Both the position numbers and the translations under genes were made by a program. From Lingula anatina (taxonomy: Eukaryota; Animalia; Brachiopoda): a stretch of 64,000 nt of DNA. Every line of letters starts with the position of its first letter. The first letter of the stretch is position 1. Below are positions 4,571 through 64,000 of this stretch, piece after piece. The stretch is from the NCBI GenBank assembly GCA_051362555.1, contig CM120640.1, positions 21,018,001 to 21,082,000 on the forward strand, read 5' to 3'. Under the pieces are notes generated by a model, which saw only the letters and a list, made by a program, of their open reading frames with translations, was not told the DNA's origin and searched no databases.

Positions 4571-36523
<31,953 letters not shown>

Positions 36524-39008: not shown

Positions 39009-42000
39009 TAGTCTAGTGAGATTTTTGAAAAAAGGCTCTGCATAAGAGGCAAGGGGCATTTTGGGGTAAAAGTTGGGAACCAGGCTTATTAGCATAATTT
39101 TGGGATGCTGAATCCGATTTACCCGGTTCCCAAGCGAAATTTTGCGTTTTTAACGGTCTAATTTGCAAAAAAACAAAATGGCCGCCAGATTTCCTATTTT
39201 CTGCAATACCTCTGGAACTAGACAGGCAAATATGACAAATGAAGTGTCTTTACCTATATTTTCAGGGTCGAGGAACATTATTAAGATGTTTCTGTTGGAA
39301 TTAGATTTACGCAATTTTCCTAAATATTCAAATTAGGATCGCCATTACTGAAAAACCGTTTTACTTCTGTATCTCTGTAGCTAGGCAAGCAAACATGACA
39401 AATGAAGTGTCTACACCTATGTTCTCAGGGTCAGGGAATGTGATAAATCAGATTTCTTGTCTGATGGGTAGCACTGACTATGTGAATCGTGTCCGAGTAG
39501 CATCTTTTATTGTTTCTTCCCTGTATCTGTCAAACACAAGTCAATCTGCTGATAGTTAGAACCTGCCTTCAGAACTGCTCTTACATACGTGTCAGCCAAA
39601 CTACCAAAGGTCACTGCATTGTCAGGCTTTCCCAGTGAAATTGTAAGTGCTTGCCAATCAATTATAAGGCAAGGTGAGCAGAGGCGGATCCAGGATTATT
39701 TGAAGGGGGAGTCCGCGGATGCAAAGCCCTCCCCCCCCCCCCCCCCCCCCCCCCCCCCCTTGGCAACGGGTTAGGGGCCTGTTGAAGGGCCACACAAAAT
39801 TTTGGTATTTAAGAGGGTGAACGGTGACATTTGGTATGGTTTACAACTATGATTCAGCTAGTCAAAATTATAATTTCAAGGGGGGACCAGAATTCGAAGG
39901 GGGGGGGGGGGGTCAGGGCCTGCCTTACGTAATATGTGGCAGTTTCTCTGAGCAGTCCTCTTTGGCTGGTTACAGAATGCGTATAAAAGGGCAGCAGTTC
40001 TGCAGAATAAGTCTCTATATTTCTATATGTCTCTATATTTTGCAGACTCTTAGCTGACCTTACGGTATGTGAACTAACGGCAGCAACTTGCCACACTATT
40101 GTTGCATTATGCCAGAATGGACAGAAGCAAACTGCTATTGCCAGACAGCTGAATGTGTCCCAGGGAGCAGTTTCTAACGTCTTACAGATACACGCCCAGA
40201 CTGGTGCATTAACACAGAGATCACGGCCAGGATGTCCTAAAGTCACCACCAGAAGGGAAGACCGCTTGCTTCTGCGGTTATGTTGCAACAACTGGACAAA
40301 GACAACTCTTGCTGTACAAAATGAGTGGCAAATTACCATTTAAAAGCATGTTTCTAGAACTCTAGTGAATGCAAGGTTACTTTTAGCTGGTTAACTCTAT
40401 GAACAGAGCAACATGGTGGGCTAGACGCCAATTGCGGTTCCAGGCACAGCAATGGGTTAATGTAGATTTTTACAGATGAGGCAGGGCTTGAGTTCCACCA
40501 CCGCGATGGCTGAATCAGAGTCAGTAGGTTTCCAGATGAGGATTGTGTCAAACTACAGTGACTTGTGGCCGTGGCAGTATCTGTGTACTGGCCGGTTTCC
40601 ACTCTGGAGCCAAAACACTATTGGTGGCAATTGACGGAAACCTCAACCAGATAAAATACAGGGACATTTTAGAGAATACTTGCTTGCAATTTGCAAGAAG
40701 ATACTTCCAGGACAACTTCATCCTGCAAGATGACAATGCCCGACCACACCATGCCCATGCAATAACTGCTTTTCTGCAAAACCAAGAGGTAAATTAGTTG
40801 CCTTGGCCGACGAAATTCCCCTGACATGAATTCTATAGAAAACCTGTGGGCATAAATCGCTAGCAGAATCAAGAGCTTACCCGTCCACGGTGGCACGGTC
40901 CACCCTACAAATCGGCACAAGCTTAAGCAAGCTCTGACTAATGCGTGTAACACAATATTGGATCATACTCTCAGAAACCTCTCTGCATGGAATGAGGGCT
41001 CTGGTTGCAGCTAGAAGAGGCTGCACGCGTTGTTATCAGTTTCCATTTTTCACATTTGTATTGATGATTCTTTTGTGTGAGAGAAAATCCTTACCAACTG
41101 ATATTCTTGATAATATCTAGTTCATAAGAATGTAATACCTCGTTATCAGCTATAAAATTATCCATGCGCTGTTTATAACGCTGATTTGAATATTAAATTA
41201 TTATTTAAATTAAATTTTTGATGATGTATTCACACGGGTTGATTTATTAAAGCCATATCGAACACGATAACAAGTGTTTTTTCATCCATTAATAATATAT
41301 GGGGAAAATTCAAAGAAAATATGTCTGAAAAAATTTCATTTTAAATGTGAAGTCTGTACATTGCATCACATGAATTACTTGGTTCAGCAAATCCCTCCAT
41401 TGCATTAATAAGGTAATCTTTTTTAAATCTAGGTAAAAGGGGCAGTTGTGTGATCCAATATGTTTACATCCCAATGGCAGCGCAGTATTTAACTGTAAAA
41501 TTAAATTCAGATTCGAATAATTGCTACAGTGTGACAGTGTAGCACTCATTGCTGATTTGATTATAGTGAAACTGTCTTAATCACTTTCCCTAACGCTGAA
41601 AACATGGGTGTGGGCACTTCATATGTCATGTTTACTTGCCTAGTTAACGTAAAAGCAGTTCTGAAGGCAGGTTCAAACTATCAGGAGATTGACTTGTGTT
41701 TGACAGATACAGGGAAGAAACAATAAAAGATGCTACTCGGACACGATTCACATAGTCAGTGCTACCCATAAGACAAGACATCGGATTTATCACATTCCCT
41801 GACCCTGAGAACATAGGTGTAGACACTTCATTTGTCATGTTTGCTTGCCTAGTTACAGAGATACAGAAGTAAAACAGTTTTTCAGTAATGGCGATCTTAA
41901 TTTGCATATTTAGGAAAATTACGTAAATCTAATTCTAACAGAAACATCTTAATAATGTTCCTCGACCCTGAAAATATAGGTAAAGACACTTCATTTGTCA

Positions 42001-44909: not shown

Positions 44910-47900
44910 ATGAAGGAATTTAGGATTGTTTCTCTGGTGGTATTGTTTTGTTGCTTGGTGAGACTTGCAAGTGGATTAAATCTGTGTTTCAGACTGTGTA
45001 GCTGGGCTGAATGGGGGAATTGGAGTCAATGCAGCAGGTATGAATATAGCACATTGAAACTTTCTTTTTGACACACGTAGAAACAAGTTTTGTTTCAAAA
45101 GTTTACATGGGAAGGTGGACTTGTTTTGCACACCACTCCAACACCCCAAGAAACAAATAGAGAAAGGGCTGACGGTCACGTTGAACTTGGTTACCAGGTA
45201 TTGCAATTTCCTGGAATGCACATTGTATCAGTTTTATCTGTTTGGTGAGAACGAAAATTGCAAAGAGAAGATTGCATTTGGACCGTGAGCGTGTGGTATT
45301 TGACAAATATCAAATACTTCCTATTTTCTTTGAAAGGAACATTCGACCTCATAAAGTTTTGACTTACTTTAAAAGTAATTTGGGCCAATTAAACAGATAT
45401 TACATGTATGTAAGCCAATAAAGATACTAATCTGTGACGGGCATAAAACATAAACGAGATCAAATCCCGCATTTTACCAAAAATTTGCCCATGTTGCCTT
45501 TTAAGTAAAACAATAAAGGTCATTCTGGGTTACCCTGAGAGTGAATTCTTAGTGGGGGAACAAAACCTCTTTCGCGCTTTATGGTTATTTAATCTTTTTT
45601 ATTCTACTCTTAAAATTTTTCTTAGACCATCTACAGTGCATGTAGGCCAATCATCAAAAGAGCACAGTTAATTTTAAAGTTTCTCTTTCAAAAGGAATTA
45701 TGTTAGCTAAAATCTTGGAGAGGTTTGGCAATGGTTTTGTCATATCAAACAGTCTACTAACCACATATGTGGTACTGATTTATATACTCATAACAATTGA
45801 AGTATGTAAGCACATGTTCAGATATTCAATAGTATGTTTAAAAAAAGCTTTTCAGTAACTACGGATGACATCTGCTTAGTAATTCGAAAAAAATACTTCG
45901 TTATTTACCGAGTGCTGTAAATATTTAAAAAAAACATGTAAGGATTCGAATCAATGTAACGTCTGTTTTACATTACATTGTTTTGGATATGCTGGCTTCA
46001 CTGTATCTGTCGATTTTCTTTTTGAGCACGTGCGGAGGAGGCTCCAGAACTCGTTCCAGAGGGCTGTGTGCTTGGTTGTGGTTGGATTTTCACCAGAAAG
46101 TAAAGCACTGCAAAAAGTCAGCGTCAGATGCCTACGACAGCCAGCCATGCGGCCAGCTTTGCTACAGAGGCTCATGGTCGGACTGGCACAAGAGGTGCGA
46201 GTGCGACCAGGGTTTCAAAGGGCGATGCTGCAATGAAAGTAAGTAATCGCTTGCCTGGGGTAAGTATTCCGCATGAAACTGCTCGAAACTGCTTTGCATA
46301 TAAACAATACGGTATTAAGGATAGAGATCTGAAAAAAATACAGGATAACTCGTCGCTGATTTGTAGCTGAAGCTGACTGATCTGTAACATTCTTTTTTTT
46401 TTTTTTTCAAATTTTAGAGACCTCTGTGTGGTCAGGTTGGACTCCTTGGAGTCAATGTTCCCGGTCCTGCGGGGGTCGTGGTATGCGGAGGCAAACAAGA
46501 GTATGCCTTAACAGTGGACCAGAGGGTTCGGAAAATGTCTGCGAAGGAGAGTCGTACAGAGCTAGAGCTTGTGATGTTCCGCCTTGTCCAAGTATGTAAC
46601 TTAGGAAACAGGCTTCGTCAATACGGATTTAATATTGATATTGATTATATTTTAAAATAGAGATATGTAAGTTGATGGTCAGAAACTGTGCATAAAATAC
46701 ACGCCCTCTCTGCATCAATTCATTTTCAGCCCTCCAAATTCAGATTCAGAAATAGCATTGTTTTTAATTTTTTAAAATCTGTTATGATTACTTTCTTTTC
46801 TCACCAGCCACTACGACATCGTCAACCTCGATTCCGCCCACCTCGCCTCCAACCGCACTGGATTCAGCGTTTCGGTTTTTGAAGAGCATTCCAGGGAACA
46901 AGTCCGTCGCATTAAATGAACTGGCCGTGTTGGAATGTGACACTGAACCAGCCACGGGAATATCGTGGTACGTACACGTTAATTTCTAAATATCAACGTG
47001 GTAAAAAATAAACTGCGATATGAAAAAGAGAAAAGCGTATGTGAAAATTAGGTTAACAGCGATAAACACCATCTCTTTTCTAAAATTTCAGGTTCTTCGG
47101 AAAGGTTCCAATCATTCAGACTTCCAGAAAACACATTCTTCTACCGCATGGGGTGCTCCTTATTCCTGCCGTTGACGCGACCACAGTAGGGGAGTACACA
47201 TGTGTGGCGGAGTTAGACGGGGAGCGCCTGGAATCTACGGGCTGGATCACGTCTCCTGATATCAAACTGTGTAACCTAGGTCTGTGAGTTGGTAATCGTT
47301 TTTATTTGTGAAATGATGTTTTATTTGATGTGAAGCTATCGTGTCTTTTTCGTTCTTATTCATGTGTTTATAAATTTTTGTCTCTAAGAGCAATTTTAGT
47401 TGACAAAATTACAAGCTCTGGGTTACGAATTTCTGCAAAAATTTGATTCTTGCAATTTCAGTATTTTTACAGGTACAGATAAAATTGTGCCCAGCGACAT
47501 AATTGCAGATATATATATATACTTTAAGTAGCAAAAAGGGCAGTTAAAAAGTACAGACTTTTTTGAAATTATACTCGCTGGAGGAATTTTTTGTGAAAGA
47601 AGCGGACTTATCAGTACTTAAAAAATTCGAAAGTAAGCCTTTTTTTACCTTAGAACTATTTTTAACAATCTGATGCAGAAATAACTGAGGGGCCAACGAA
47701 CGTCACAGTGGCCGTAGGAGATCTTCATACATTTCCTTGTCTGGCATCACCAGCGGGACAAGTCACGTGGTTCAAGAACAACCAATCACTGCCAGCGGAC
47801 GGCCGAATCCAAGTTCTGGTGAATGGATACCTGTTGATTCGAGGGATAACCCACGAGGATGCCGGAGAGTACAAATGTGTTGCAACAGATAGATATGAGT

Positions 47901-49057
47901 GCAGGGTGGAGGCAAAAGCCGTTCTTACAGTTTTTGCAAATATCAACGAAAGTAGGTATTATTTCTACACGTATGATTTATCATCGTCATCACAAATACT
48001 GACGGATGCTTTAATTAGTGTTTGCAAATAAGGGTCACGATAAGGGTCAGTTGGCGCAGATGAAGAGACATGGTCAATGATGTAATTATATTAGTGGAAT
48101 AAAAATTATCTGTAACTGTTTTAGATTGTCAAAGTTTAGTGCTAGTTCCATATTTTTTTACATAAATGAATGCCTTTGTAGCACCGGAAAATATTTCAAG
48201 AATTACCTACCCTTGTATGCCAACATGTTTGATCGTTGATTGTTTCAGTTTGCGGGAGTCCAGTAATAGCCCAGCCCTGGTCAGCTACACCGGTGCAAAG
48301 GGGGTACATCGTTGGAGGGAGAGATGCTCGGATAGGCAGCGCCCCCTGGCAAGTTATGCTCTGGGAGGCGACTGCTCTAAATTTCTGCGGTGGAGTCCTA
48401 CTCAACGAGTTATGGGTGGCAACAGCAGCTCACTGCTTTTACGAATTCCAAACAAGGCACAGAAAAAGTTTGACGCCGAGTAATTTGGTTTTGAAGTTAG
48501 GCAAACATAGCCGTACCGGTAGAGATCCTCACGAGAAGTCTTACTCCATGCAGACGTATTTTGTGCACGAACAATTCGAGCGAATTACTTTCGATTTCGA
48601 CATAGCTTTGATAAAGCTTTCGTCTCGAGTGGAGTTTACGGACTACATCCGCCCAATATGCTTGTCCACTATTGACATGATCCAGCCCATGTTGGACGGA
48701 GAGGCACAGGGTTTTGGGACAATCACGGGGTGGGGGCAACTGTCACAAGGCGGCAGGTATCCCCTTTATCTCAACGAAGTGCGCCTGCCGTTAGTTTCCC
48801 ATTCAGTCTGTGAAAGCACGATGTCATATATCATTACGGATAATATGTTTTGTGCGGGTTACGCCAGGGAAGTAGTGGGGGACGCCTGCGTCGGGGACAG
48901 TGGGGGACCACTGGTCTTTCGAAATGGGACTCGCTGGTACCTAATCGGGCTGGTCAGTTGGGGCGAAGGATGCGCCGCTGATGGAAAATACGGCGTATAT
49001 AGCAAAGTGGCCAATTATCGAGACTGGATTGGTTTAAAAATGCGGTCGATACCATAA
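44910..49057 (+). CDS. Secreted modular serine protease: signal peptide, TSP1, EGF-like, TSP1, Thr/Pro linker, 2x Ig, trypsin-family (thrombin/coagulation-factor-like) domain; 7 exons, ~647 aa
   Basis: Exons 44910-45037, 46027-46238, 46418-46591, 46808-46967, 47092-47279, 47679-47951, 48249-49057 are phase-consistent (1944 nt). Hydrophobic leader MKEFRIVSLVVLFCCLVRLASG; WAEWGNWSQCSSTCGGGSRTRSR and WSGWTPWSQCSRSCGG (TSP1); CECDQGFKGRCC (EGF-like); GEYTC and DAGEYKC (Ig); IVGG, TAAHC, DFDIAL, DACVGDSGGP (intact triad, S1 Asp). Confidence 0.9.
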
Positions 49058-51006: not shown

Positions 51007-54000
51007 ATGGCTGAATTCAACCTCGTCGGTACAGGTAAGGTAATGTTTTGACGATAATGTGTACTCATATGTGTGTTTTAGATACAATACAAGTTATTGA
51101 GTTGTACATGTACGTGGAATACACGACTTCTTTGCGTGATTTGATTTTCAATAGAGCTAGCTATGTGGCAAGTGTTGTATCTGAGTTATACGTGTAACAC
51201 GGAAACAGGGTGTTGTGTGTGTAACGGGTAGTGAAAACGCTCAGAATACCTTAAGTGTATTAAAGTTTCGACTTTTACATCTGAAAGTGATCCGTGGTAT
51301 CCGGAGACATGGAATATCTGTCTGAACGAAGCCTACTGATGTTCCCTTTTATAAATATTCACACGGCCATTAGTATTTTAATACTTAAAAGCTCATTATA
51401 AGAGGGCTAGGACTATCTCAGATGTTATGTAGGACGTCTGTTTATTACATTTGTCGTATCCGGGTTAATATTACAAGGTACTGGGGAATGTTTAAAGGTG
51501 TACGATGTGGTTTCTTTTCATTTTACTAGAACCACGTACCACGAATACCAAACTCAATACTAAGACAGTAGCTGTTTGTATTGTTAAAAAAGTATACACT
51601 TTCTTTTATTTTCTACTTTTGCCATGTAGTGTGACTTCCTTAGCTATATTAAAATCCTTACTTAATTACGCTCTCCCTATTAAGAGTATTGATAAATGTT
51701 ACCTGTTGTTTGCAAAATGGAGATAACCTACATTGAGGTACATTCTACTATTTCTAGGCCTATGCCTGTTGTTATTGACTAACTCGAAATACCTAAAACT
51801 AGTTTAAAGGCATAGTGGCACCCCGGTCGAAATTTTTGCATAAGCCTACTTTACATGTATAAAAATAAAATATTTATGTATTTTATTTTTAGATCTTAGC
51901 CACTATATTAAGTTGTGCTGGTACAAAAGATAATAATTTAATTTACTAGTATAATAATAGATTTCTACAAATACTGCATCCGTAAGAACTTTCCTTTGCT
52001 TTATATAATAGTAGTTTAACTAACCCTTATAACAGGAAACATTTTTGGCATGTTTAAATATTAACGCAATCTAATCTTCAGCAGACCTTAATTTAAGTTA
52101 AGTAGTATGCGTGAAAACAAACTTAATGTTGGTACATGTATAACTGATAAATAGGCCTAAGTTGTCTATAGTTTCCAATGCAATTGATACTGCCGAATTA
52201 ACTTAAAAATTGCATGCTTTATATCTACAGGGTCTCAAAAGGAGACATTCGATGTTTACATCCCCGAAGCTACAGATACCGCGCACAAGAATAGTATCAA
52301 ATTTTACGAAACTTACATAGAAAAATATCTCCTTAAGTTTTTACGTGAAAACGGCATTTCGTACACGTATCCCCCTGAAAACTTCCCAGTTGGAGGAATC
52401 ACTCTAAGACACATAGAGAATGCGATCCAAAACAGCAAATTTGTCCTAGTTCCAATTTGCAACGCCATATGCACTGATTATTATGATACAATATTTCAAC
52501 CTGATTTGTGCCCCGAAAAATACATCTGCATTGCAATCGAAGAAGGGTCTTCTGCAATTCTTGTCGCATTTCGTAAGTTTCAAATATTGGATTTAAAAAA
52601 GACATCCGGAAAACGAATCAAGGAAAACGAACAACGATTATTGCGGACTCTTAGGGGACCAGCTCCACCGACACTAGCTGTTTCAGAGACATGGCAGACA
52701 GTGGAAAGAAGATGCGAAGCGGAAGGGAGCATTTCAAGTAATCTATTTTATTTATCTGTAATTTGCTTTTTAATGATTACACGGTGAAACATTTTCAGTA
52801 TCGTAAAGATATGAATTTTTATTTTAAAAAATGTGAAAAAACCGACATCATAGTTGGCGAGAAATGTAATATTCATCTATGTGTAGGCCTATGTCTGTCG
52901 TTCAATGATTCTTGTAACAATGATTCATGTAACATAATTATACATGCTATTTTTGACCAATTATATATTTAAGCACTTTCTACTGCCCGTATGGATGTCC
53001 CAAGCGTCGTACACTGTGCCAGTGAATCCGAATGTGTTTCAAATTATGCTGATGACGTTACAACGGGACATGTGTCAGAGAAAAAACAAGGTAAATTTTA
53101 TTTTTTTCAAGCCAACACGAAAAGCTTAATAATACTGCATTTTGCATTGTTTTAAATCACACACACACAAGCAAGTACATAAATATATACAGTCGAAACT
53201 AGACTGCAAAAATCGATTTACGGTTACGTTAATATAGCCACTGTATTTTCAATATTATATTTACATGGTTCAATTTCTAGAAGGATCGATTTTATACTAA
53301 TATTCCAAGAATTCCAAAAACAAAAATAGTCTTCGTGACACAGCATAATAACTACATATAGTAAAATAAAGCTGTTGTTTGGATTTTGCTTGTATATGTA
53401 CCCATTTTAAAAAATTGTTGCAGCCAAATGGACGGCACCTATTTTTTCTGAAACGACCAGCACTGTAGACACGTTCGATTCCTTTCGATTGGAAAACAGT
53501 ATTCAGGTAATTTCTACCCTTTTGCTAATTTTCGAATACGAAGAACTATAAAATACTTTTTTTTCAGAAAAAACATTTTTTCTAAGATAATTTTTCGATG
53601 TAGATGTTACAAGAGCCTTCCTGTTCATTTAGGTTTTCAGCAACTGGTACTCATCGATATCTTTCCTTAAATGTCTTTTCAAAAGCTTTCTCAAGCAAAT
53701 TGGAGCACTGAGATTGTCTTAGAAGAAGAAACGCCCTTTAAAGATTTTTTGATGCCAACGCAGTCGAATTCATTCAGCACTGACAGATACTGGATCAAAA
53801 ACGAAGTAATGTGCCTTACCGGTAAGAAATTGACAGAGCGAGAGAGAGAGTGGGGGGGAAGCGGAGGGGTTATACGTCACATTTTTATCCAAGTCCACGT
53901 TGCATTAAGTATCCTGTTAAAACATTTCATTACCTGAAATATGCATTTATCTACAGGTTTTCACAAGATGTATGTACCTGTTTAAAACGTGATATTGAAG

Positions 54001-57000
54001 GTGAGAGAGGCAGTCGGGGAATGAAAAGCATTGAGAGTGGGAATGATTATACTGCAAATGGTCATTTCAGAACCTTCTTGTATGGGTATGGCGCCAAGTG
54101 AGTATCTAAAACATTTAAAAAAAGGCCAAGTTGGAAATCCAGACGCTCGTTTTCTCCTGCAATATGTCATACCTAAGGCAACAGAAAGCAGAGGTTTTTT
54201 GAGTCTAACATACCTATTCGCCTACATTAAGGACGAGCAGATACAACTGTTTGCACTGGAATCGCTTAATTCTTTACTGAAAACATACAACAAGATCACC
54301 TCTGAAAAATTTTCAAAAACTTTGCTGGAAATAGAAAAAATTATGCGACAACCCATTCAAGAGTGCAAAATGTTCAGCAGCATCCCTTTGACAGAGAAAC
54401 TGCTTTTAACATACACGCGGATTATCACCATGATGTATTTTTTGTATTTGGGTGATTTTGTTAATTTGAAAAGTCATGAGGTGATGCCAGTGGAAAATGT
54501 GAATTACTTTGTAAACAACAATAGTTCAAAGTTCCCTACCTCGGCACAATACAAACTTGCCAACTTGCAAAAGTTGTCTTGTAAGTGCCTTCAAAGACTG
54601 CTCCAAACCACCAAGTTAAGAAGACGCTGGAAGCGACAACGAACGGACGAGTACCGCCAGACACTACGCAGAGTTGTAACACTATGCAGCGGAGATGCCA
54701 AAGACCACAAGGAGCTTCAAAGAGTGATTGGGGGCACCAGTTGGATAAATGGGACTGCCAGACACGGCTGGCTTGAAAAGCACACAATATTGCATTACAT
54801 TGCTCTCAAGGTATTGTTTTATTTGTCACTTCCCCTATTAGTTACGTATAATCTCTAATTGTACTATCGCACTTTCAATAGTGTATTCAAATGGAAAAGA
54901 GCGCCATAATGCATTTTTGCCTTCTTTAAGCGTTGTTGCAGTGTCTAAAAACTGCAAGCAATTTTCTAGGTGTCGGAAAACCCAGACCTGTACTCTGTCG
55001 TGGAAAGCATCGTGAAAAACCACATGTCTAATGCCAATATGTCCGATCGTGATGCTGCCTCTTGGATCATGCTTTATGAGCGCATGCTGACAAACTCCAC
55101 GTCAAGTGAGTTATGGCGGAATCTTCAAACCAAAATTGAATATTTAAACTTAAAATGTTAGTTTGTTGAAAATTGCTATAGAATTGTACATTTCATTACA
55201 TTTTGAATGCATTGACATGCTGTGTTACACTTGACTCATTTTTTCAGCTGTGTTACATCCAGTTACAGACGGTCTCGTCAATTTGCTGCGATATCTTAAC
55301 AAACAGGCCGGCGTTCGATCAAATCTTCGACAAGTGTTGTTAGACAACGCAGCTAAATTGCTATTTCATGAAGATTCGTCTCTCAGAGAAAGTGCTATGA
55401 AGCACGTATTTGGGTTGGACATCAGAGGGCACGTGAGACCTGATGTCATGCCCGACATGCAAGCTCAGGTGAGGGAATATATCATGTCACTACACCAGCA
55501 CCTTGGGTTGGAGGTAGATAGATATCAAACTCAACTCAGCAGGCACACGGGAGAGAGCTGTAGCACCAGATGGAAAGGAAAGTTTGCCAAAACTGCTGTT
55601 TTTGTATCCCTGAAAGCATGGCTGCCACAGGATTTGGATTCACTAGGCACCAGGCTTGACGTCGCTAAAGAACAGCTCTCCAAAGAAATCGAAGTTCTTA
55701 AAACTTTATCTTGTTCACCAGAATGCCGCTCCGTTGCCAGATTGCTAGGGTACCACGATTTGTCGTTCCCACTGTTCTACATTTTAGAGAGTACCAGATC
55801 AGACCAGACCTTGTCTCAATGGCTGCTTTACAGGGACCAAAGAATGAGGGCACCGCTTTCGCTTTTTCAGCTACTCACAGGACCAGTGAAGGATGTACTC
55901 TGTGCGGTTCAGTTCTGCGAAGACCATGCGATCGTACTACGAGATATAACGGCTAGTAACTTCTTACTGGATGAAAGCAGTGCTAGTCACATAAGGTGTA
56001 TTTTGTTTGGTTTTGACTTAGCGAGAGTGATGAAATCAACCACCACAAACAAATCCATGGATAATTTGGACACACTTGCCAGTGACACCAGTGGTCTTGT
56101 CTATTATGGTGAGCAGACTATACATTCGTAAGAGAACTTGGGTAAAATCACTAAAACATTTTTGCCCTTTCACATGTTTGCAATCAAACATGTAAACATC
56201 TCGGTATCATTATGTTAAGAATTCTAATCATTATTGGACTTTGTCAGGTTGTAGGGCTATGCAAATCCTTTAATTAGTACGCTACCAGATTTTTGACCGA
56301 GAGTGATTTAACCGTGTGTACAATTACTCCATACAGGCCAAATTTAAAGGCTTTTGTACTCCTTTTCAGGTTCCAAAGGGACGCAGGTTGCCAAACTTTG
56401 GACAGCGCCAGAATCTTTCCTGCACAATGTGTACACTATGAAATCTGACATGTACATGACAGGGCACACTCTGATTGAGGTTATGACTCATGGCCGGTTT
56501 CCTTACAATGAACTGACCACACTCAAGGCCGACGACAAAATATTCCAGGTGGGTGGCCAGTCAATACAGTTGGTTACCCTAATAGCTGGTGGCGAGATAC
56601 ATCGATAGTCTACTCACAAACTCACAAACCATTGCTTGAACCGTCCCTCCACTAGGATTTGGTTTTTAAGTCGTTTGTAATTCAGTAATAGGCCTATTTT
56701 TAAACGCCTGGCCATTCATTTAGACCGTTCTTTATATTTCAGAAAGAAGCATCGTAATCAGGTGCTCATGTTTGAAGGGGGTTCATTGTTTTTAAGGTCT
56801 GAATTAAGGCCTGAATTAGGGAAAAGTAGTAGTATGGAGACAGAAAATAAAATCGATGAAAATGACTTTGCAACGTTTTTAAACGCGGATAGTAGAACTA
56901 TGCCTTTAATTTCGGGTGGAATGGAAGTCCGAGGTCCCATATGATTAGTACAGGTTAGTTGGAGCATGGAAGTCAAAGTGGATTTCCTTCAATGAGCGTA

Positions 57001-58906
57001 TTCAGAACAGATGATCCGCGGAATAACTTATCCACCCAGTAAATATAGCCGATCGAACTTAAAAGCAGCGCCGCTTAATCCTCTGATGGTCTCCCCGCCT
57101 CCACACTCGCCATTAAACGGATTAAATCTCAGCTCCGAGGTTTAATATTGCAAGGCCCCTGCAACACACTTACCCCAAGCTGTATGAAATCAAAAGATTG
57201 TGGACTTTCTATTACATGGACATATTTATTTAAAAGTTATGGAGTAAAATTTAGTTCGCAGCAGAGGTACATGTAATGTCATGTGCACATGTAGTAGTAT
57301 AATGTGGGAATTTCTTTACTGTACCTACGCTGCAGCAGTTATTTTATTTATTTATCTTTTGATACATTAAAGGGATAATAACTCTTCGTATGAAATCTAC
57401 ATTTCACAATAAAAACATTGTGAATAACTCATAGAAATATAATATATTCTGTTTTACCACAAAAAACGGCAGTTATAGCTATTATTCTGATATCTGAGCT
57501 TGTCTTTAGACCACGTGACCTCCATTGATGGCTATACTCTGTTAAAATCTCTTAAGAGATTTTAACAAAAAACCAAACTTTTTAGAAAAAAACCAGGGAC
57601 TAACTTTGAATGTAAAAATGGATTCGTTAACCATTGGTAAGTATGGGAAAATTGTTGTTTACTCCAGGAAAAATTCATTTTTTGGCCGAAACTAAGAGTT
57701 ATTATCCCTTTAAGATACATTTTTCAGATTGTTATCAACTTCAGCCGTATCTTCCTGATCTTCTAGGTGTTGCGTTATGGACTAAAACCTACTCACCCAC
57801 CTTGTATACCACAGATCATCTTCGTACCGCTGTTGAAATGTTTCCTGACGACTCCAGAGAACCGTCCAAAGATAGACGATTTGCAAGAGATGTTCAGAGA
57901 TTTTCTTTCGCGAAGAAAACAAGACGGTTCGTTCCTTTCTCAGATTGTGCTTTTTAAAATGAGATTTGTTTCAGATCTTGTGAGGCTTCAATTATATTGT
58001 AGTTGAATGCAATTTGTTGATTGTCATTAGTCTCATCATCGGTCGCCTTGTTACCAATTGAAACAATACTTCAAAATTATCCGTCAAGATATATATGTAC
58101 CGCATGGAGGGGGGGGGGCTGAAAATGTAGGCCTATTATAATTACAGCCTTTGAGACTCATTGGAAAGGAACTTGTGAGACCCTGTTACGCAATATTACA
58201 TGCCCATTGCGTTTAAGTGAACTGGAGGAGATCAGATTGTGCCAGAGGTGTTCGTCGTAGGGGGTCAAATGGTGCAAGACGGAATGGAATGTCGATGCAG
58301 CAAGTTTTAAGAAAACTGGTTGACTGAAAAATCAGCTCGACTTTCCACCTTCAGGCTCCTTCATACGTTTTTATATCATTTACCCAGTATTTCTACAAGT
58401 ATTCTCTGCTCAAAATACCAATAGAAAAAAGTGCGATTCCCTGAGACCAAAGTAGGCCAAAAACCTGTCTCTGGCCCTGAACTTGTGCCCTCTTGTTCCT
58501 GCATACAGATACCAATAGTGATATGAGTAAATTCAAGTTGATAATAGTAGCATTTACGAATTTAAGGAAAATTTCATTTCAACATGATTAATAACTTTTG
58601 ATTAACCTATCATTGGTGAATTATACAATTTGTTGCCTGACATTGAATATTCTTGCACCTTTCGGATTTTCAGGTGTGAAATATCGAGACGAGCCACCCC
58701 CGACCCTTGACCCGTATCAGCCTCAATTTCCAGAGAAGGTATCTCAAATATGTAAAATGCTTTTATGCAATAATGTAATTGCTAATTTTAAATTCATTTA
58801 GATTTTTTAGTGATTTAGTTATAACAGTTTTCTTGATTTATATTTGTTGTTTATATTTGTTATTAGGGTTTTCCCAAATTCCTCCTCAATGTGAAGAACT
58901 TTGAAG
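51007..58906 (+). CDS. TIR domain - alpha-helical/HEAT-like region - tyrosine-kinase-like pseudokinase fusion protein (>1000 aa; 3' end not resolved)
   Basis: Phase-consistent exons 51007-51034, 52231-52737, 52974-53090, 53424-53506, 53686-53821 (uncertain; alternative 53787-53821 + 53957-54000), 54071-54810, 54970-55105, 55248-56108, 56370-56548, 57767-57926, 58674-58738, 58867-58906. TIR motifs: TFDVYI, ENFPVGG, IENAIQNSKFVLV. Kinase motifs: VSLK, KEIEVLKTL, IVLRDITASNFLL, LFGFDLAR, LWTAPES, KSDMY, EVMTHGRFPY, PENRP. Confidence 0.82.
56840..56960 (-). mobile_element. Short L2/CR1-like ORF2 3' remnant in an intron
   Basis: Minus-strand GPRTSIPPEIKGIVLLSAFKNVAK resembles the LINE C-terminal 'GP..WN.LP.EIK....L..FK' motif. 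Confidence 0.4.
57371..57709. mobile_element. Kolobok-type TTAA MITE, 339 bp
   Basis: Perfect 16-bp TIRs AGGGATAATAACTCTT (57371-57386) and AAGAGTTATTATCCCT (57694-57709), flanked by TTAA (57367-57370, 57710-57713). Purine-purine termini distinguish it from piggyBac (CCY). Confidence 0.85.
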
Positions 58907-59628
58907 GTGAGATTCTTTTATTTTTATTTTGTATATTTAAGTGCTCAATATGTTTAACCATGATACAAGGCCAAATGGGCCAAAATTTTGTAAAAAAGTA
59001 TTTGTTTATGCCGAATTGCTTTGATATTATGGTGGGAAGTTGCACCTGGGTTCTCCTTTCGTCATCCTGAGTCTGGGGTCAATTGGTGCATTTTCAGTAA
59101 AGAAACAGCCATTAGACGGTAAAATAGAAAAGTCTTTGTAATTTTTGAACCCCAAAAGTCACAGACATTTTGTTTGTAGCACTTTGTAGAACTTGTCAAG
59201 TGCAACACTGAAAGTGGATTTTTTTTTTACATATGGTTTACGAGTCGGCAAACGCAATCCGAATTTCCATGGTTCGTGTCAAATTTGCGTAAAGTTGCTC
59301 CAATAAAACCCAAGGGCACTTAAGATATTAATTACGAAGGCTTATATCCCAATTTCTTATGAAAGGGGGATCCAGTGTTGCACTATTTCGCGGTACATAC
59401 CAGTACAAATCTAAATTACTCAAACATTGCGCAAGTCCACTCGCGTTATATAATTACATGTAAAACCATGAAGTGCACAAGCAAGCGATTTCATTAAATT
59501 AATTTACAAGGCTTACGATTATTTTTGTGAATTGAATAGGATGCTCAATGATGAAAATATTCCAAAACTAGCAGAGATACGCCCATAGTTACAATTGAAC
59601 TTGAATAATCATATATTGGTAATCTTAA

Positions 59629-62600
59629 GGCCGGTGATAGGGTTAAATACGCTTAAAATCATGTTTTTGAGTTTTTTGTGTGTTTATATTAATCAAAAAA
59701 GTATCTAACGTTGGATGTAATAATTTTTATGAATTTGCATTGCAAAATGCGTCTTTTGATGAGTTTTTCAACCGGCACGCGCCCCAGTCAGGCTGACAAC
59801 TAAGCCACGCCTCTGTTACTAAGGGCCGTTGCCATGAGGGGGTCGGAGCACAGTTAATGAGTTATAAGCCGATTACGTGTGCGGTAATAGGTCATAAGTC
59901 TTACATCAGCTTAGCAGCGAAGAAGTCTAGCTAGTACACTATGGGGAAGAGAAAAGTTCGTGTTAAAAGTCCCTTTCCAGAGGAAAGAAGGAAAATTTTG
60001 AGAGTAAGGCCTATGCGTGGCGGTTGGGGAAAACCGGCCCTATTTGTTCAGTCGGATGACTGATTTCTGTATACCTAATAAATTGGTGAAAGAGTTAATC
60101 GAAACGTCTAAATTAATTGACAAATGAAAGAAAAATCGATAAATACATAAATAAAAAAAGCTAAAAAAAGGATACTTTTAGCCTAGCCTTTAATTTTTGC
60201 GATATATATCGTCGAGCGTATCTGAAACACGTTACGAAACCGGAAATGATTGTTGGTCGCCGTTTGCAAAAGGTAAATCTAATGTTGACAAAATAAATTT
60301 TTATTCTCCAAGATATGATATCATGGAGCTTGAGAGAGACGCGAAAAATTGTGATTTGAATGGCCAAACAAGAGAAATCCAAGCAAAGGTTGACAGCATG
60401 ATTAAAACAATAAAAATAAAAACGCATGTTAGCGGCTTTGCATTTTGCGATATTTGGAGAAAAACAATTTCAAAATCACTGATCAAGCGGGAAGAAAGAG
60501 TTCAAGTGTCCAAAAATGAAAATCACAAAAAGACCCCGAGAATAGTCAAGGCTAGCAGGTAAAAAGCAAATAGGGTCTAAGTGTCATGTGTGTAAAAATA
60601 AAATATTTATTCAAAAGCCTTCTCTCAGCCACTTTTACCGCTGAATCTTGTGCAGCTGAGCGTCTCCCCTTTATCTTAGCTGGCATTTTGAGCGAGACCG
60701 CTCTGAAGTAATCACTGGATTTTTCCGTTGATCTGACGACTACCAAGTGCCGTGCAAAATAATCCTGCAGCGTTACCCGTCAAAAAACTCGTATCAACAC
60801 AAGTGACGGACACTTGCTCTCGACACAGTTTTATCTGATCACTTTGCCGATAACAAAGAAGGAATCTCTCAGGTAAAATTACTCGATTGCCGAGGAAGAG
60901 CCATTGAAACGTTCAAATGCAACTTCACACCTCTTAATTGCGGCTAAACGTAATCGCCTTTGTTAGCGCTTCCTTCTACATATCCTTGACACCCTACGGG
61001 GCATCACTAGGCTAGGGCCCTCTCCAGAGCTGTCAATCAAAATGGCGGCACGCTTACATGCCTAACGAGTGGTCGGAAAATGTAACAAAAGCACGATTTT
61101 CTGCCCCTTCAAAGCACCCAAACAAAATATTTTTAGATGACAATAAGCAATGGTTCCATCTGATCGTATAACCGATAACAGGTAAATTTGCCAGCTAAGC
61201 ATTTGACTAATAAGCCCTGTTAACCAACCTGTGAACGTTTTTGGCTGTTTTAACAGCTTTCTATATTGACGAGATAAGTGAATCGCTGCCAAGTATATCT
61301 CACTATCTGAGCAACCTATCGTTACAAAAGTTGCACCTATTGTTGTTAGGAATGTGGACTACAGCATGATATCAGGGGTTTAAGAGGAAATTGTTTGTTT
61401 GAAAGTTATTGCCTTTTGAAGTGAATAACCCATTGAAATATGGGCTGATTTAACGTAAAAGATGATAAAATCAAAAGTAAATAGTTTAAGACAATTCCCT
61501 GGTACCCCGCTGTAGTGCTTTCACACAGCTTTATGAGGCCTTTTGAATCACTTGAATAGCTGTCTTGGTTATAGAGAAAATCCCAATACCGAAAACGGCA
61601 TTTTTCCCCTCAAATTGGCGCCAGAGCGTCATCCGTTGGACACTGTACTTAATCCCCGTCTTTAATAACCTTGCGCGCGTTATACGTCACAGGTCTTGCG
61701 TAACTACCCACGTGCTACGATTTTTCCCTTGGGGGGGCAGCAAGCGGACATTTTGTACAGGAGCAATGCAAAGATGGGTGAAAACGATACGTTGTTTTTA
61801 ACCGAAAACGATGTCCCCGGGGCGAAACTGCCAACACCAAAAGTAAAGGAGCATACCAACGTTGTTTTGAAACGATGTGGTTAGCCTGTCAGTGGCGAGT
61901 TGGGGAGAAAAGAGCAGCACTGATAGCAAGGTACTGTGTACACGTGAACCGGCAAAGTTAATGATAATTTCATGTTGCAAAAGCATAATTAAATCAGTTA
62001 GTTATTTTCCAAACGATATTATTTGAATAGCAGATACATAGATCAAACTAACAACAATAAAAATTTTTGATGACATTGAAAATCAAAACCTGCGGTGCAC
62101 GATAGGTTGAGGAGGACACTGCCACAGCAAGTAATGCATGAATTTTGTTACATAACACCATACATGTATGCTTGTGTCGTTGTTAACTCTGTGGTATTAT
62201 TACTGCTCAAATTAATACATGATACTATTTCTCAGGCTACCAAGTACAAATCAACTAATTTTGTGGCAATTGACCTCCATGTTCCATCATGTGTGCAGGT
62301 TGTTTATTATTATTATTATTTGTTCAAGCACATTTTGATAAAGTGGCTATGCTTTAACAAGAGAAAGTCAAAATTTATGCTGAAGTTTAAAAGATTAAAT
62401 CATCAGTAGTATATACAATTAAAGCTATTTGATTATGCATATTTGATTTTCAGTTATCTTGATTATGATACGCGGTTGCTGCCTTTTTCTTTTGCCCTCA
62501 AATCAATATATAACAAGTAAATTGATAGTGCTTTATTACAATTTTGGCTTTATACTTTCAGATGTAAAAAATGTGTAGCTGTTGGTAAAGTTGTAGAGAT

Positions 62601-64000
62601 TGATGTGAGCATAGATCAGGGGAAATGGTATTAGAGAAACTAGGAGGACAAGACATAGATACTAGTAGATCGATCATCACAGCAAGGGTAGATGGTGTGA
62701 TCTTGTCCCTGAAGCTGTGCCTCAAGTTTTCAACTGGTGTGAATTGCAATATGTACCTTCAGGTTATACGTGGCAGATTCATGACAAAAGAGACCTTCAC
62801 AATATACTTCAAAGGAGTTATTCTTGCATCTATGCCTCATCAAAAGTACACAGTTGAAGTGACTAGATCATTGTCTGCCAATAGTGAGGCAGTGAAGGCT
62901 GCAAGATGCCATTGTTTTTTGAGTATTAAGACTGACAGTATCTGTTTTTATTATTATTTTTGTATTATTCATTTTTAATGGGAGGGAGATTCACTTTGTT
63001 CTTTCTATGCCCATTCAGTTTAGGGTTGGTGGCAATATATGGTAAATCCGTCATGCCTGTATGTAGAATTTCTTTTGCTCAAATTTCTACATTTATTAAA
63101 TGCATTATGAAGTTTCCAGAGTGATTAATGAGCTTACTTGTAGAAATATCTTGCCTACACGCATTTTGTGATATTTTTACTGCTTTATACGTATGATTAT
63201 TCACATTTCATCAGTGGTGTGTGAAATGTATTTGCATTTTAGAACTGTAGATCTGTGTACCAGCAGGGTTATATTTCAGTAATATCTGTTAATGTTTCTA
63301 AAAATAAGCTTCATGTTTGATAATTAATTGGTTTTAAATAAATAAATAAATAATAACCCAAATAAAATTAATTCATTTTATATTTCACATAATCTGTTCT
63401 TATTATTTCTTCTAAGCATTTAATCATAACATCTCCCACCATTATACTGTTATTGTGTAATAACATTGAAAGTTTCCAAGATTTTATTAACAGGTTGATG
63501 CTAACGTATTACAAATAAATATAAGCATCAAAGCATATTTCCTTACTCAAATGTAGCAAACGTACCACTGGCATAATACCGGTAAAGATACAGGTAAAGA
63601 TGACAGCATTGATAACTGGGTTTACAGTGCTGTTAGTGCAGCATACATGTAGTTAGTGTCAGATTGTTATCTGATAAAGTTTGCTACTAGTACCTGGGAA
63701 CAAAAGGTCTGGCACTTGACAATCAAGTTGATAAAATCACAAAACGCCTGTAGAAAATAGAGCATACCTGCCCAACATTGATTTGTTCAGATTCTTGACT
63801 AAGGGGTGCGTTACTGATGTCAAGGGCCAAGACTTGAACTTAGAAGTTTGGCATGTCACTGGACATTACTCTCGATTTCTGCCCAAATCTAATAAAGCCT
63901 CAGTTGCTTAACTTTTACCAAATTTCCAATATCTACAGGTCGTGTTGTTTAATGCTTGGGGTCTTTTCTCTGGCGGCGGTTAATTGGGAACACCTGTGCG
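59629..64000. mobile_element. Probable large Kolobok-like DNA transposon (decayed); right end not seen in the window
   Basis: TTAA|GGCCGGTGATAGGG start at 59625-59642, a CpG-richer interior, and degenerate SAP-like and SWIM-like coding pieces. The boundaries are inferred. Confidence 0.45.
61774..62915 (+). pseudogene. Degenerate SAP-like + SWIM-zinc-finger ORF of the type found in Kolobok/YqaJ-nuclease elements
   Basis: MGENDTLFLTENDVPGAKL..KEHTNVVLKR(frameshift)WLACQ..GEKRAALIAR then a GT donor (SAP-like). Later IYFKGVILASMPHQKYTVEV..AVKAARCHC (start of a SWIM finger). Confidence 0.5.

Follow-up and report, generated by a model that had tools for sequence, protein, structure and literature searches.

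The window analysed here is the whole 64,000-nucleotide (nt) stretch of Lingula anatina contig CM120640.1 (assembly GCA_051362555.1, positions 21,018,001 to 21,082,000 of the forward strand), and all positions are given within it. From 51007 onward, its + strand carries a gene that joins a probable, divergent TIR domain, a Leu-rich, presumably helical region and a degenerate kinase domain of the tyrosine kinase (TK) type; its product is referred to below as the window protein. The gene model, 51007-58906, comprises 12 exons with GT-AG at every border and 1017 codons free of stops, and an in-frame TGA lies 18 nt upstream of the ATG at 51007.

RNA evidence consists of short reads only, from nine runs chosen by species label, seven of which mapped on the window. 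The reads back all 11 introns, nine as listed joints and two as loose read ends matching the next exon (51034>52231, three reads; 56548>57767, 10 reads). On the TIR side, the joints are 52737>52974 (nine reads), 53090>53424 (three), 53506>53686 (eight) and 53821>54071 (six); on the helical and kinase side, 54810>54970 (18), 55105>55248 (16) and 56108>56370 (six); the 3' joints, 57926>58674 (seven) and 58738>58867 (six), come from run X7. All six joints leading from the TIR exon to kinase exon 8 are present in a single run, X8. This unbroken chain therefore argues against separate transcripts: as far as short reads can show, a single transcript carries both the TIR-like and the kinase exons. 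The phase-consistent linkage asserted in an earlier note on this DNA, which was made from the letters and their open reading frames, is thus upheld by both the open frame and the read-supported joints. The path that the note had predicted, from 52737 through 54071 to 55248, passes through three small Ser/Thr-rich linker exons between the TIR and helical parts, and no direct 52737>54071 joint is among the joints listed. A nine-exon form lacking the linker exons was rejected: its frame stays open, but the skipping joint is absent among those listed. The exons are as follows.

Exon 1, 51007..51034, + strand: start codon, amino acids (aa) 1-9; TGA 18 nt upstream; three loose-end reads into exon 2.
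Exon 2, 52231..52737, + strand: probable divergent TIR domain at about aa 12-152 and start of the linker; evidence from TIR_2, the family profile and the relatives' profile.
Exon 3, 52974..53090, + strand: Ser/Thr-rich linker; joints of nine and three reads.
Exon 4, 53424..53506, + strand: linker; joints of three and eight reads.
Exon 5, 53686..53821, + strand: linker; joints of eight and six reads.
Exon 6, 54071..54810, + strand: bulk of the Leu-rich, presumably helical region, aa 291-537; relatives' profile E 4.7e-17.
Exon 7, 54970..55105, + strand: helical region; joints of 18 and 16 reads.
Exon 8, 55248..56108, + strand: end of the helical region, kinase N-lobe, LRD and GFD motifs; Pkinase E 9.5e-6; 22 phmmer matches.
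Exon 9, 56370..56548, + strand: kinase from the P+1 loop to helix G, TK type; PK_Tyr_Ser-Thr E 6.7e-10; six-read joint.
Exon 10, 57767..57926, + strand: kinase helices H-I; 10 loose-end reads and a seven-read joint; aligns to relatives.
Exon 11, 58674..58738, + strand: Pro-rich linker motif, located in relatives ahead of the second kinase-like domain; joints of seven and six reads.
Exon 12, 58867..58906, + strand: closes at a phase-1 donor, where read matching stops.

A phmmer search with exon 8 produced 22 matches, of which 18 were kept after removal of P0004 (pim-like), P0005 (repetitive), P0007 (bacterial) and P0017 (unrelated). The kept matches comprise 13 unnamed or unchecked fragments and five long proteins (four from hemichordates and one from a snail). 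The fragments mostly stop near the intron following exon 8, which suggests a shared exon, and the exon-8 relatives are 19-28% identical to one another. Three of the five long relatives (P0006, P0010 and P0014) have the same succession of parts as the window protein: TIR-like, then helical, then kinase. The TIR-like hemichordate relatives, XP_070563230.1 from Ptychodera flava and XP_077866880.1 and XP_077862405.1 from Saccoglossus kowalevskii, are all uncharacterised proteins, named as such in RefSeq, for which Pfam shows kinase domains only; in the best-matching stretch, they are 25-29% identical to the window protein. Like the window protein, these three proteins have a TIR-like N-terminus, a homologous helical region, a degenerate TK domain and a Pro-rich linker, in the same order; unlike it, they extend through another degenerate kinase into a long tail, neither of which was found within the window. 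Two kinase-like domains are present in four of the five long relatives, where the second domain has RLG or RWG in place of DFG, and also in P0028, a further snail protein from a cluster. A word-based homologue search with exon 8 for longer proteins yielded none among 2841 candidates, a word search with residues 1-640 of P0006 recovered P0006 itself only, and a search with the TIR alignment recovered only its three members. P0028 is a Biomphalaria pfeifferi model labelled 'Abelson tyrosine-protein kinase 2' that actually belongs to this family and has 7tm_1 in front; the model is misnamed and possibly fused.

The TIR motifs quoted in the earlier note are encoded in exon 2, at 52245, 52380 and 52440. 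Compared alone with Pfam, this exon matches TIR_2 with an E-value (E) of 0.003 and 18.5 bits, so that a match is indeed present in the region where one had been expected (domain at about aa 12-152, against the predicted 15-150), although under the Pfam cut-off. The single exon gave one chance match only in the PDB. A four-sequence family profile (the window protein and three relatives) retrieved TIR proteins in 13 of its 14 PDB matches, with TLR2 as the best (E 3e-4) and TLR6, TLR15, TLR1 and TIR-STING among the others; the matched part runs from the BB-loop through strand C. The TIR segments of the three relatives, cut from an alignment built with the window sequence included, gave a profile that ranked exon 2 first among 3484 six-frame pieces (E 9.7e-6). 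In the Atlas, all 30 clusters (30/30) retrieved with residues 20-160 of P0006 are TIR-named, with a best score of 0.92. The AlphaFold model shows five strands alternating with helices in a TIR-like order, and its lower fold matches include SEFIR (Z 6.5) and TIR-STING (Z 6.1). Foldseek on this model and on a single-sequence fold with a predicted local distance difference test score (pLDDT) of 40.2 found nothing at E 0.001. Several of these results count against the TIR assignment: the Pfam gathering scores of TIR and TIR_2 were not reached (18.5 and 19.3 bits versus 28); the Atlas feature overlap, obtained with the relative P0006 as the query, is 141-159 of 256 versus 170 typical within a family; the AlphaFold model has a low pLDDT of 49.9; and prolyl-tRNA synthetases head its fold matches (Z 8.1, root-mean-square deviation 4.6, 116 residues aligned), whereas SEFIR and TIR domains score 1.6 to 3 Z units less. 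On balance, it is very probable that exon 2 encodes a divergent TIR domain. At the position aligned with the catalytic Glu of TLR2 helix C, the window protein has Phe98.

The middle region spans about 375 aa (aa 291-665), with 13% Leu, and is presumably helical by prediction. Exon 6 was found by a profile of four relatives (E 4.7e-17), and comparison of the middle region with the relatives gave z of 4 to 12 against four of them and no signal against P0016. This region has no Pfam or PDB family match, and comparison of its profile with itself revealed no off-diagonal repeat match (probability 0.1); the 'HEAT-like' label given to it in the earlier note stands as an unconfirmed prediction. In the Atlas, P0006 falls close (0.91-0.93) to clusters of STKLD1, in which 48% of members have ARM_LRRK2, and of ULK4; we treat this as a lead only for the middle region.

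The kinase fold with a TK-type C-lobe near the C-terminus, as originally described, was recovered by Pfam, with Pkinase on exon 8 (E 9.5e-6) and PK_Tyr_Ser-Thr on exon 9 (E 6.7e-10, above cut-off). In a search of the PDB with a five-relative kinase profile, the best 60 of 844 matches are all tyrosine kinases, and the top matches of the window kinase are ALK; judged by these matches, the domain is TK-derived. It lacks the glycine loop, contains LRD in place of HRD and GFD in place of DFG, and has Ser in the strand-3 lysine column, with a Lys two residues further on. The relatives show the same tendency. GxGxxG is present in none of the 16 family sequences that cover the loop, and the strand-3 Lys in six of the 17 that cover it; the catalytic-loop Asp of HRD is found in 10 of 19, the Asp of DFG in five of 19 and the complete DFG motif in one of 19. 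The strand-3 Lys and both Asp residues do not occur together in any of the 17 family sequences that cover strand 3 (0/17). The motif loss supports the original designation of the domain as a pseudokinase, and nearly all relatives likewise lack the glycine loop and DFG; degeneracy is thus characteristic of the family and would speak for a retained non-catalytic role.

At the 3' end, reads over the last joint stop matching exactly at 58906, a phase-1 donor (shorter side, 42 letters); therefore, at least one further exon exists. Of the span assigned to the gene in the earlier note, the start and the exon chain were borne out, and the end at 58906 was not. The remainder of the gene may lie past the window or consist of one short final exon, with a candidate acceptor at 60680. 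A profile of the second kinase detected no exon in 58907-64000 (best E 23). The same profile does detect the kinase gene upstream in the window (E 4.6e-7) and exon 9 (E 0.002), and therefore only small or very divergent second-kinase exons could hide after 58906. Because exons 11-12 encode the Pro-rich linker common to all long two-kinase relatives, a second pseudokinase past the window seems slightly likelier than its absence.

The gene is covered by three of the seven mapped runs, all from study P3, with coverage near zero in X1, X3, X4 and X5. In the P3 reads, 138 listed places deviate from the window sequence. These reads more likely come from diverged animals than from a close paralogue, because X7 reads, but not X4 reads, also differ from the window in a neighbouring protease gene. 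Among the 40 differences shown (of 138), 18 are synonymous versus 11.2 expected (P 0.013), and, by this excess, the reading frame is under constraint. Within the same 40, synonymous differences make up nine of 14 in the TIR part and six of 18 in the helical region, where the remaining 12 of the 18 listed differences alter the residue, near the neutral expectation.

Several other features were observed within and around the gene. In linker exon 5, three of eight X8 reads have a one-base insertion in a T run at 53744, which is either an error in the reads or a frameshift allele. Intron 9 contains a 347-bp element (57367-57713) with 23-bp inverted ends (96% complementary) and very deep reads in all runs, likely a miniature inverted-repeat transposable element. 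Downstream, 60022-61524 has - strand transcript reads in the stranded runs X1 and X3. A + strand transcript at ~61700-62980 is spliced (61930>62236, >62562) in X1, X3 and X4 and unspliced in X7; Pfam gave no match for its 124-aa frame, which ends in a Cys pattern resembling that of SWIM-finger mobile elements. This transcript could lie inside a long intron belonging to the TIR-pseudokinase gene. The upstream neighbour, 47666-49057, has an Ig I-set exon and, after it, a trypsin-type serine protease domain contained in one exon, and its product is a possible clotting- or complement-type protease. Farther upstream, a multi-exon gene at ~11700-27500 encodes an active-type kinase (Pkinase) with a coiled-coil tail, which resembles the SLK/LOK STE20 kinases; a 459-aa open frame inside it (23950-25329) has no Pfam match. 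A paired-box/helix-turn-helix match at 39854-40343 is likely a Tc1/mariner transposase fragment.

The window protein has no transmembrane-type segment (highest 19-residue hydropathy, 1.29), consistent with the cytosolic location that had been predicted for it. A membrane-receptor reading was rejected on the lack of a hydrophobic segment together with the in-frame stop upstream of the ATG. We consider it an even chance that this protein is a predicted cytosolic, non-enzymatic adaptor or brake, combining a TIR domain and a pseudokinase, in TIR-based innate immune signalling. Under this scheme, the TIR domain, devoid of the catalytic Glu, would dock on the TIR domain of an activated Toll/IL-1-type receptor or adaptor, and the helical-pseudokinase body, tethered by the flexible Ser/Thr linker, would thereby be able to cluster at the docked TIR. 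The pseudokinase (most long relatives have two in tandem, and the window protein probably does too) would then bind or tune an active kinase, phosphorylating nothing itself; the effect could be either activating or dampening. Some observations speak against this scheme. We infer the immune role from the TIR domain alone. P0015 and P0016 (two of the five long relatives), as well as P0028, have no TIR-like segment, and therefore the family's core parts may function independently of a TIR domain. Asp and Asn of the catalytic loop are retained in the window kinase, as is Glu of helix C, and residual kinase activity is therefore possible. One of the four family TIR domains (ungapped count), that of P0014, has Glu at the catalytic position.

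The same TIR-less relatives, the retained catalytic Asp and Asn, and expression in three of seven mapped runs, all from one study, would also fit a non-immune scaffold, acting in development, nerve or stress, or an atypical low-activity kinase; the TIR domain would then be either an all-purpose docking module or a relic in decay. We regard this as unlikely, given the synonymous excess in the TIR part (nine of 14) and the retention of the TIR domain in three other proteins of two species.

A pathogen sensor, in which the pseudokinase or pseudokinases would serve as baits for microbial enzymes directed against host kinases, and the TIR domain would be freed to signal once a bait is bound, is distinctly unlikely in our view, although parts of the data agree with it. 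Divergence is very fast (19-28% identity among the exon-8 relatives, and no word-search relatives of P0006 residues 1-640), 12 of the 18 differences listed for reads over the helical region alter the residue, and degenerate kinases occur in tandem in four of the five long relatives. However, no ligand or effector is assigned to the pseudokinases, and the 12 of 18 is near the neutral expectation and maybe reflects relaxed constraint, with 40 of the 138 differences visible. Plant tandem kinases have reportedly been put forward as immune regulators, and kinase-pseudokinase receptor baits are said to have been proposed in plants. By analogy with such receptors, we tentatively entertain, as a broader and still rather unlikely idea, that an old bilaterian family with a TIR domain, a helical region and a double pseudokinase, overlooked in TIR surveys because its TIR domain scores under the Pfam cut-off, might function as a self-contained cytosolic immune sensor, with the dead TK domains as baits and the TIR domain as output.

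An MLKL-like death executor, by analogy a protein whose phosphorylated pseudokinase would release a membrane-damaging helical region, with the TIR domain as a recruitment tag, is quite improbable. The helical region does stand immediately ahead of the pseudokinase, and the DFG site reads GFD in the window protein and GFE in P0015; MLKL has GFE at this site. Against this, MLKL is absent from the 60 best PDB matches in either profile search, and the helical region is internal, about 375 aa long and devoid of a Pfam match, whereas the killer bundle of MLKL is N-terminal and smaller. Very improbable, too, is a TIR domain that cleaves NAD+ and is held off by the pseudokinase. According to the accessible part of one report, many animal TIR domains produce cyclic ADP-ribose, and the activity needs a glutamate (bioRxiv 10.64898/2026.04.20.719644); P0014 has this Glu, but the window protein has Phe in its place, and three of the four family TIR domains lack Glu (ungapped count). 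Separate transcripts for the TIR and kinase exons, or reads from a paralogue with this copy silent, are scarcely credible either: the weakest joint has three reads in one run, all reads are short, the read differences number 138 and four of seven runs have next to no reads, but the X8 chain of joints is unbroken with the frame open over all junctions, the X7-not-X4 differences in the protease gene point to diverged animals, and the fusion is repeated in three RefSeq proteins.

Among known systems, the predicted adaptor or brake resembles in outline MyD88 with IRAK/Pelle (including the pseudokinases IRAK-M and IRAK2), in which a TIR docking module is likewise coupled to a maybe-dead kinase fold. 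The window protein differs in being one chain with a TK-type kinase and no death domain match; neither the eight of 12 exons scanned (the other four, 1, 4, 11 and 12, being shorter than 30 aa) nor four whole relatives gave a death-clan match. The analogy to MyD88-IRAK drawn in the earlier note is therefore a loose one. SARM1, too, is cytosolic and combines a TIR domain with a long helical region; unlike SARM1, the window protein has an N-terminal TIR domain without the catalytic Glu, no SAM match and a pseudokinase. JAK resembles the long relatives in its tandem TK-type domains, but these relatives have no FERM or SH2 match (four whole relatives) and their second domain is degenerate too. MLKL, ULK4 and STKLD1 likewise pair a helical or HEAT/ARM part with a pseudokinase, whereas in the family described here, the helical region has no sequence match to theirs and the kinase is tyrosine-kinase-like; none of the three is known to have a TIR domain.

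TIR and kinase domains in one chain have been reported from other marine invertebrates. According to the accessible parts of the respective sources, Pkinase and Pkinase_Tyr occur among the partner domains of amphioxus TIR proteins (PMC2575513, supplementary file 4), a RIPK2-like LRR-TIR-Kinase protein exists in the lancelet (PMC11747288), and the sea-anemone protein NG3 contains kinase, SH3, Roc/COR, death and TIR domains (PMC5094078). The window protein shares this TIR-kinase combination, but differs from the lancelet protein and NG3 in having no LRR, Roc/COR, SH3 or death match (Pfam, window exons and relatives); the amphioxus table, in its accessible part, gives partner domains only, so overlap with the present family is possible. 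In the literature, we found no account of a family with a TIR domain, a helical region and a tyrosine pseudokinase, although two surveys beyond our reach could list one. No TIR-pseudokinase family is mentioned in the accessible text of PMC8662601 or PMC8195603, one supplement of PMC8662601 has no kinase match, and papers citing Gerdol et al. 2017 (ecTIR-DC families) name no kinase family in their accessible parts.

The earlier note had presented the architecture as unrecognised and the one-chain TIR-pseudokinase as undescribed. Both statements stand in part: no named family was matched, but the window protein is not a one-off, its relatives mostly have two kinase-like domains, and TIR-kinase chains are already in print. 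If the adaptor reading is true, Toll-type signalling would be joined to TK-derived pseudokinases in one chain, offering a testable TIR signalling route without the death domains of MyD88-IRAK. TIR inventories based on the Pfam cut-off undercount, as the TIR domain of the relatives is missed. The family is thus a real, conserved and unnamed class of invertebrate TIR proteins, annotated only as 'uncharacterized' kinases and apparently undescribed, within a TIR-plus-kinase category that is itself already known from amphioxus, lancelet and sea anemone.

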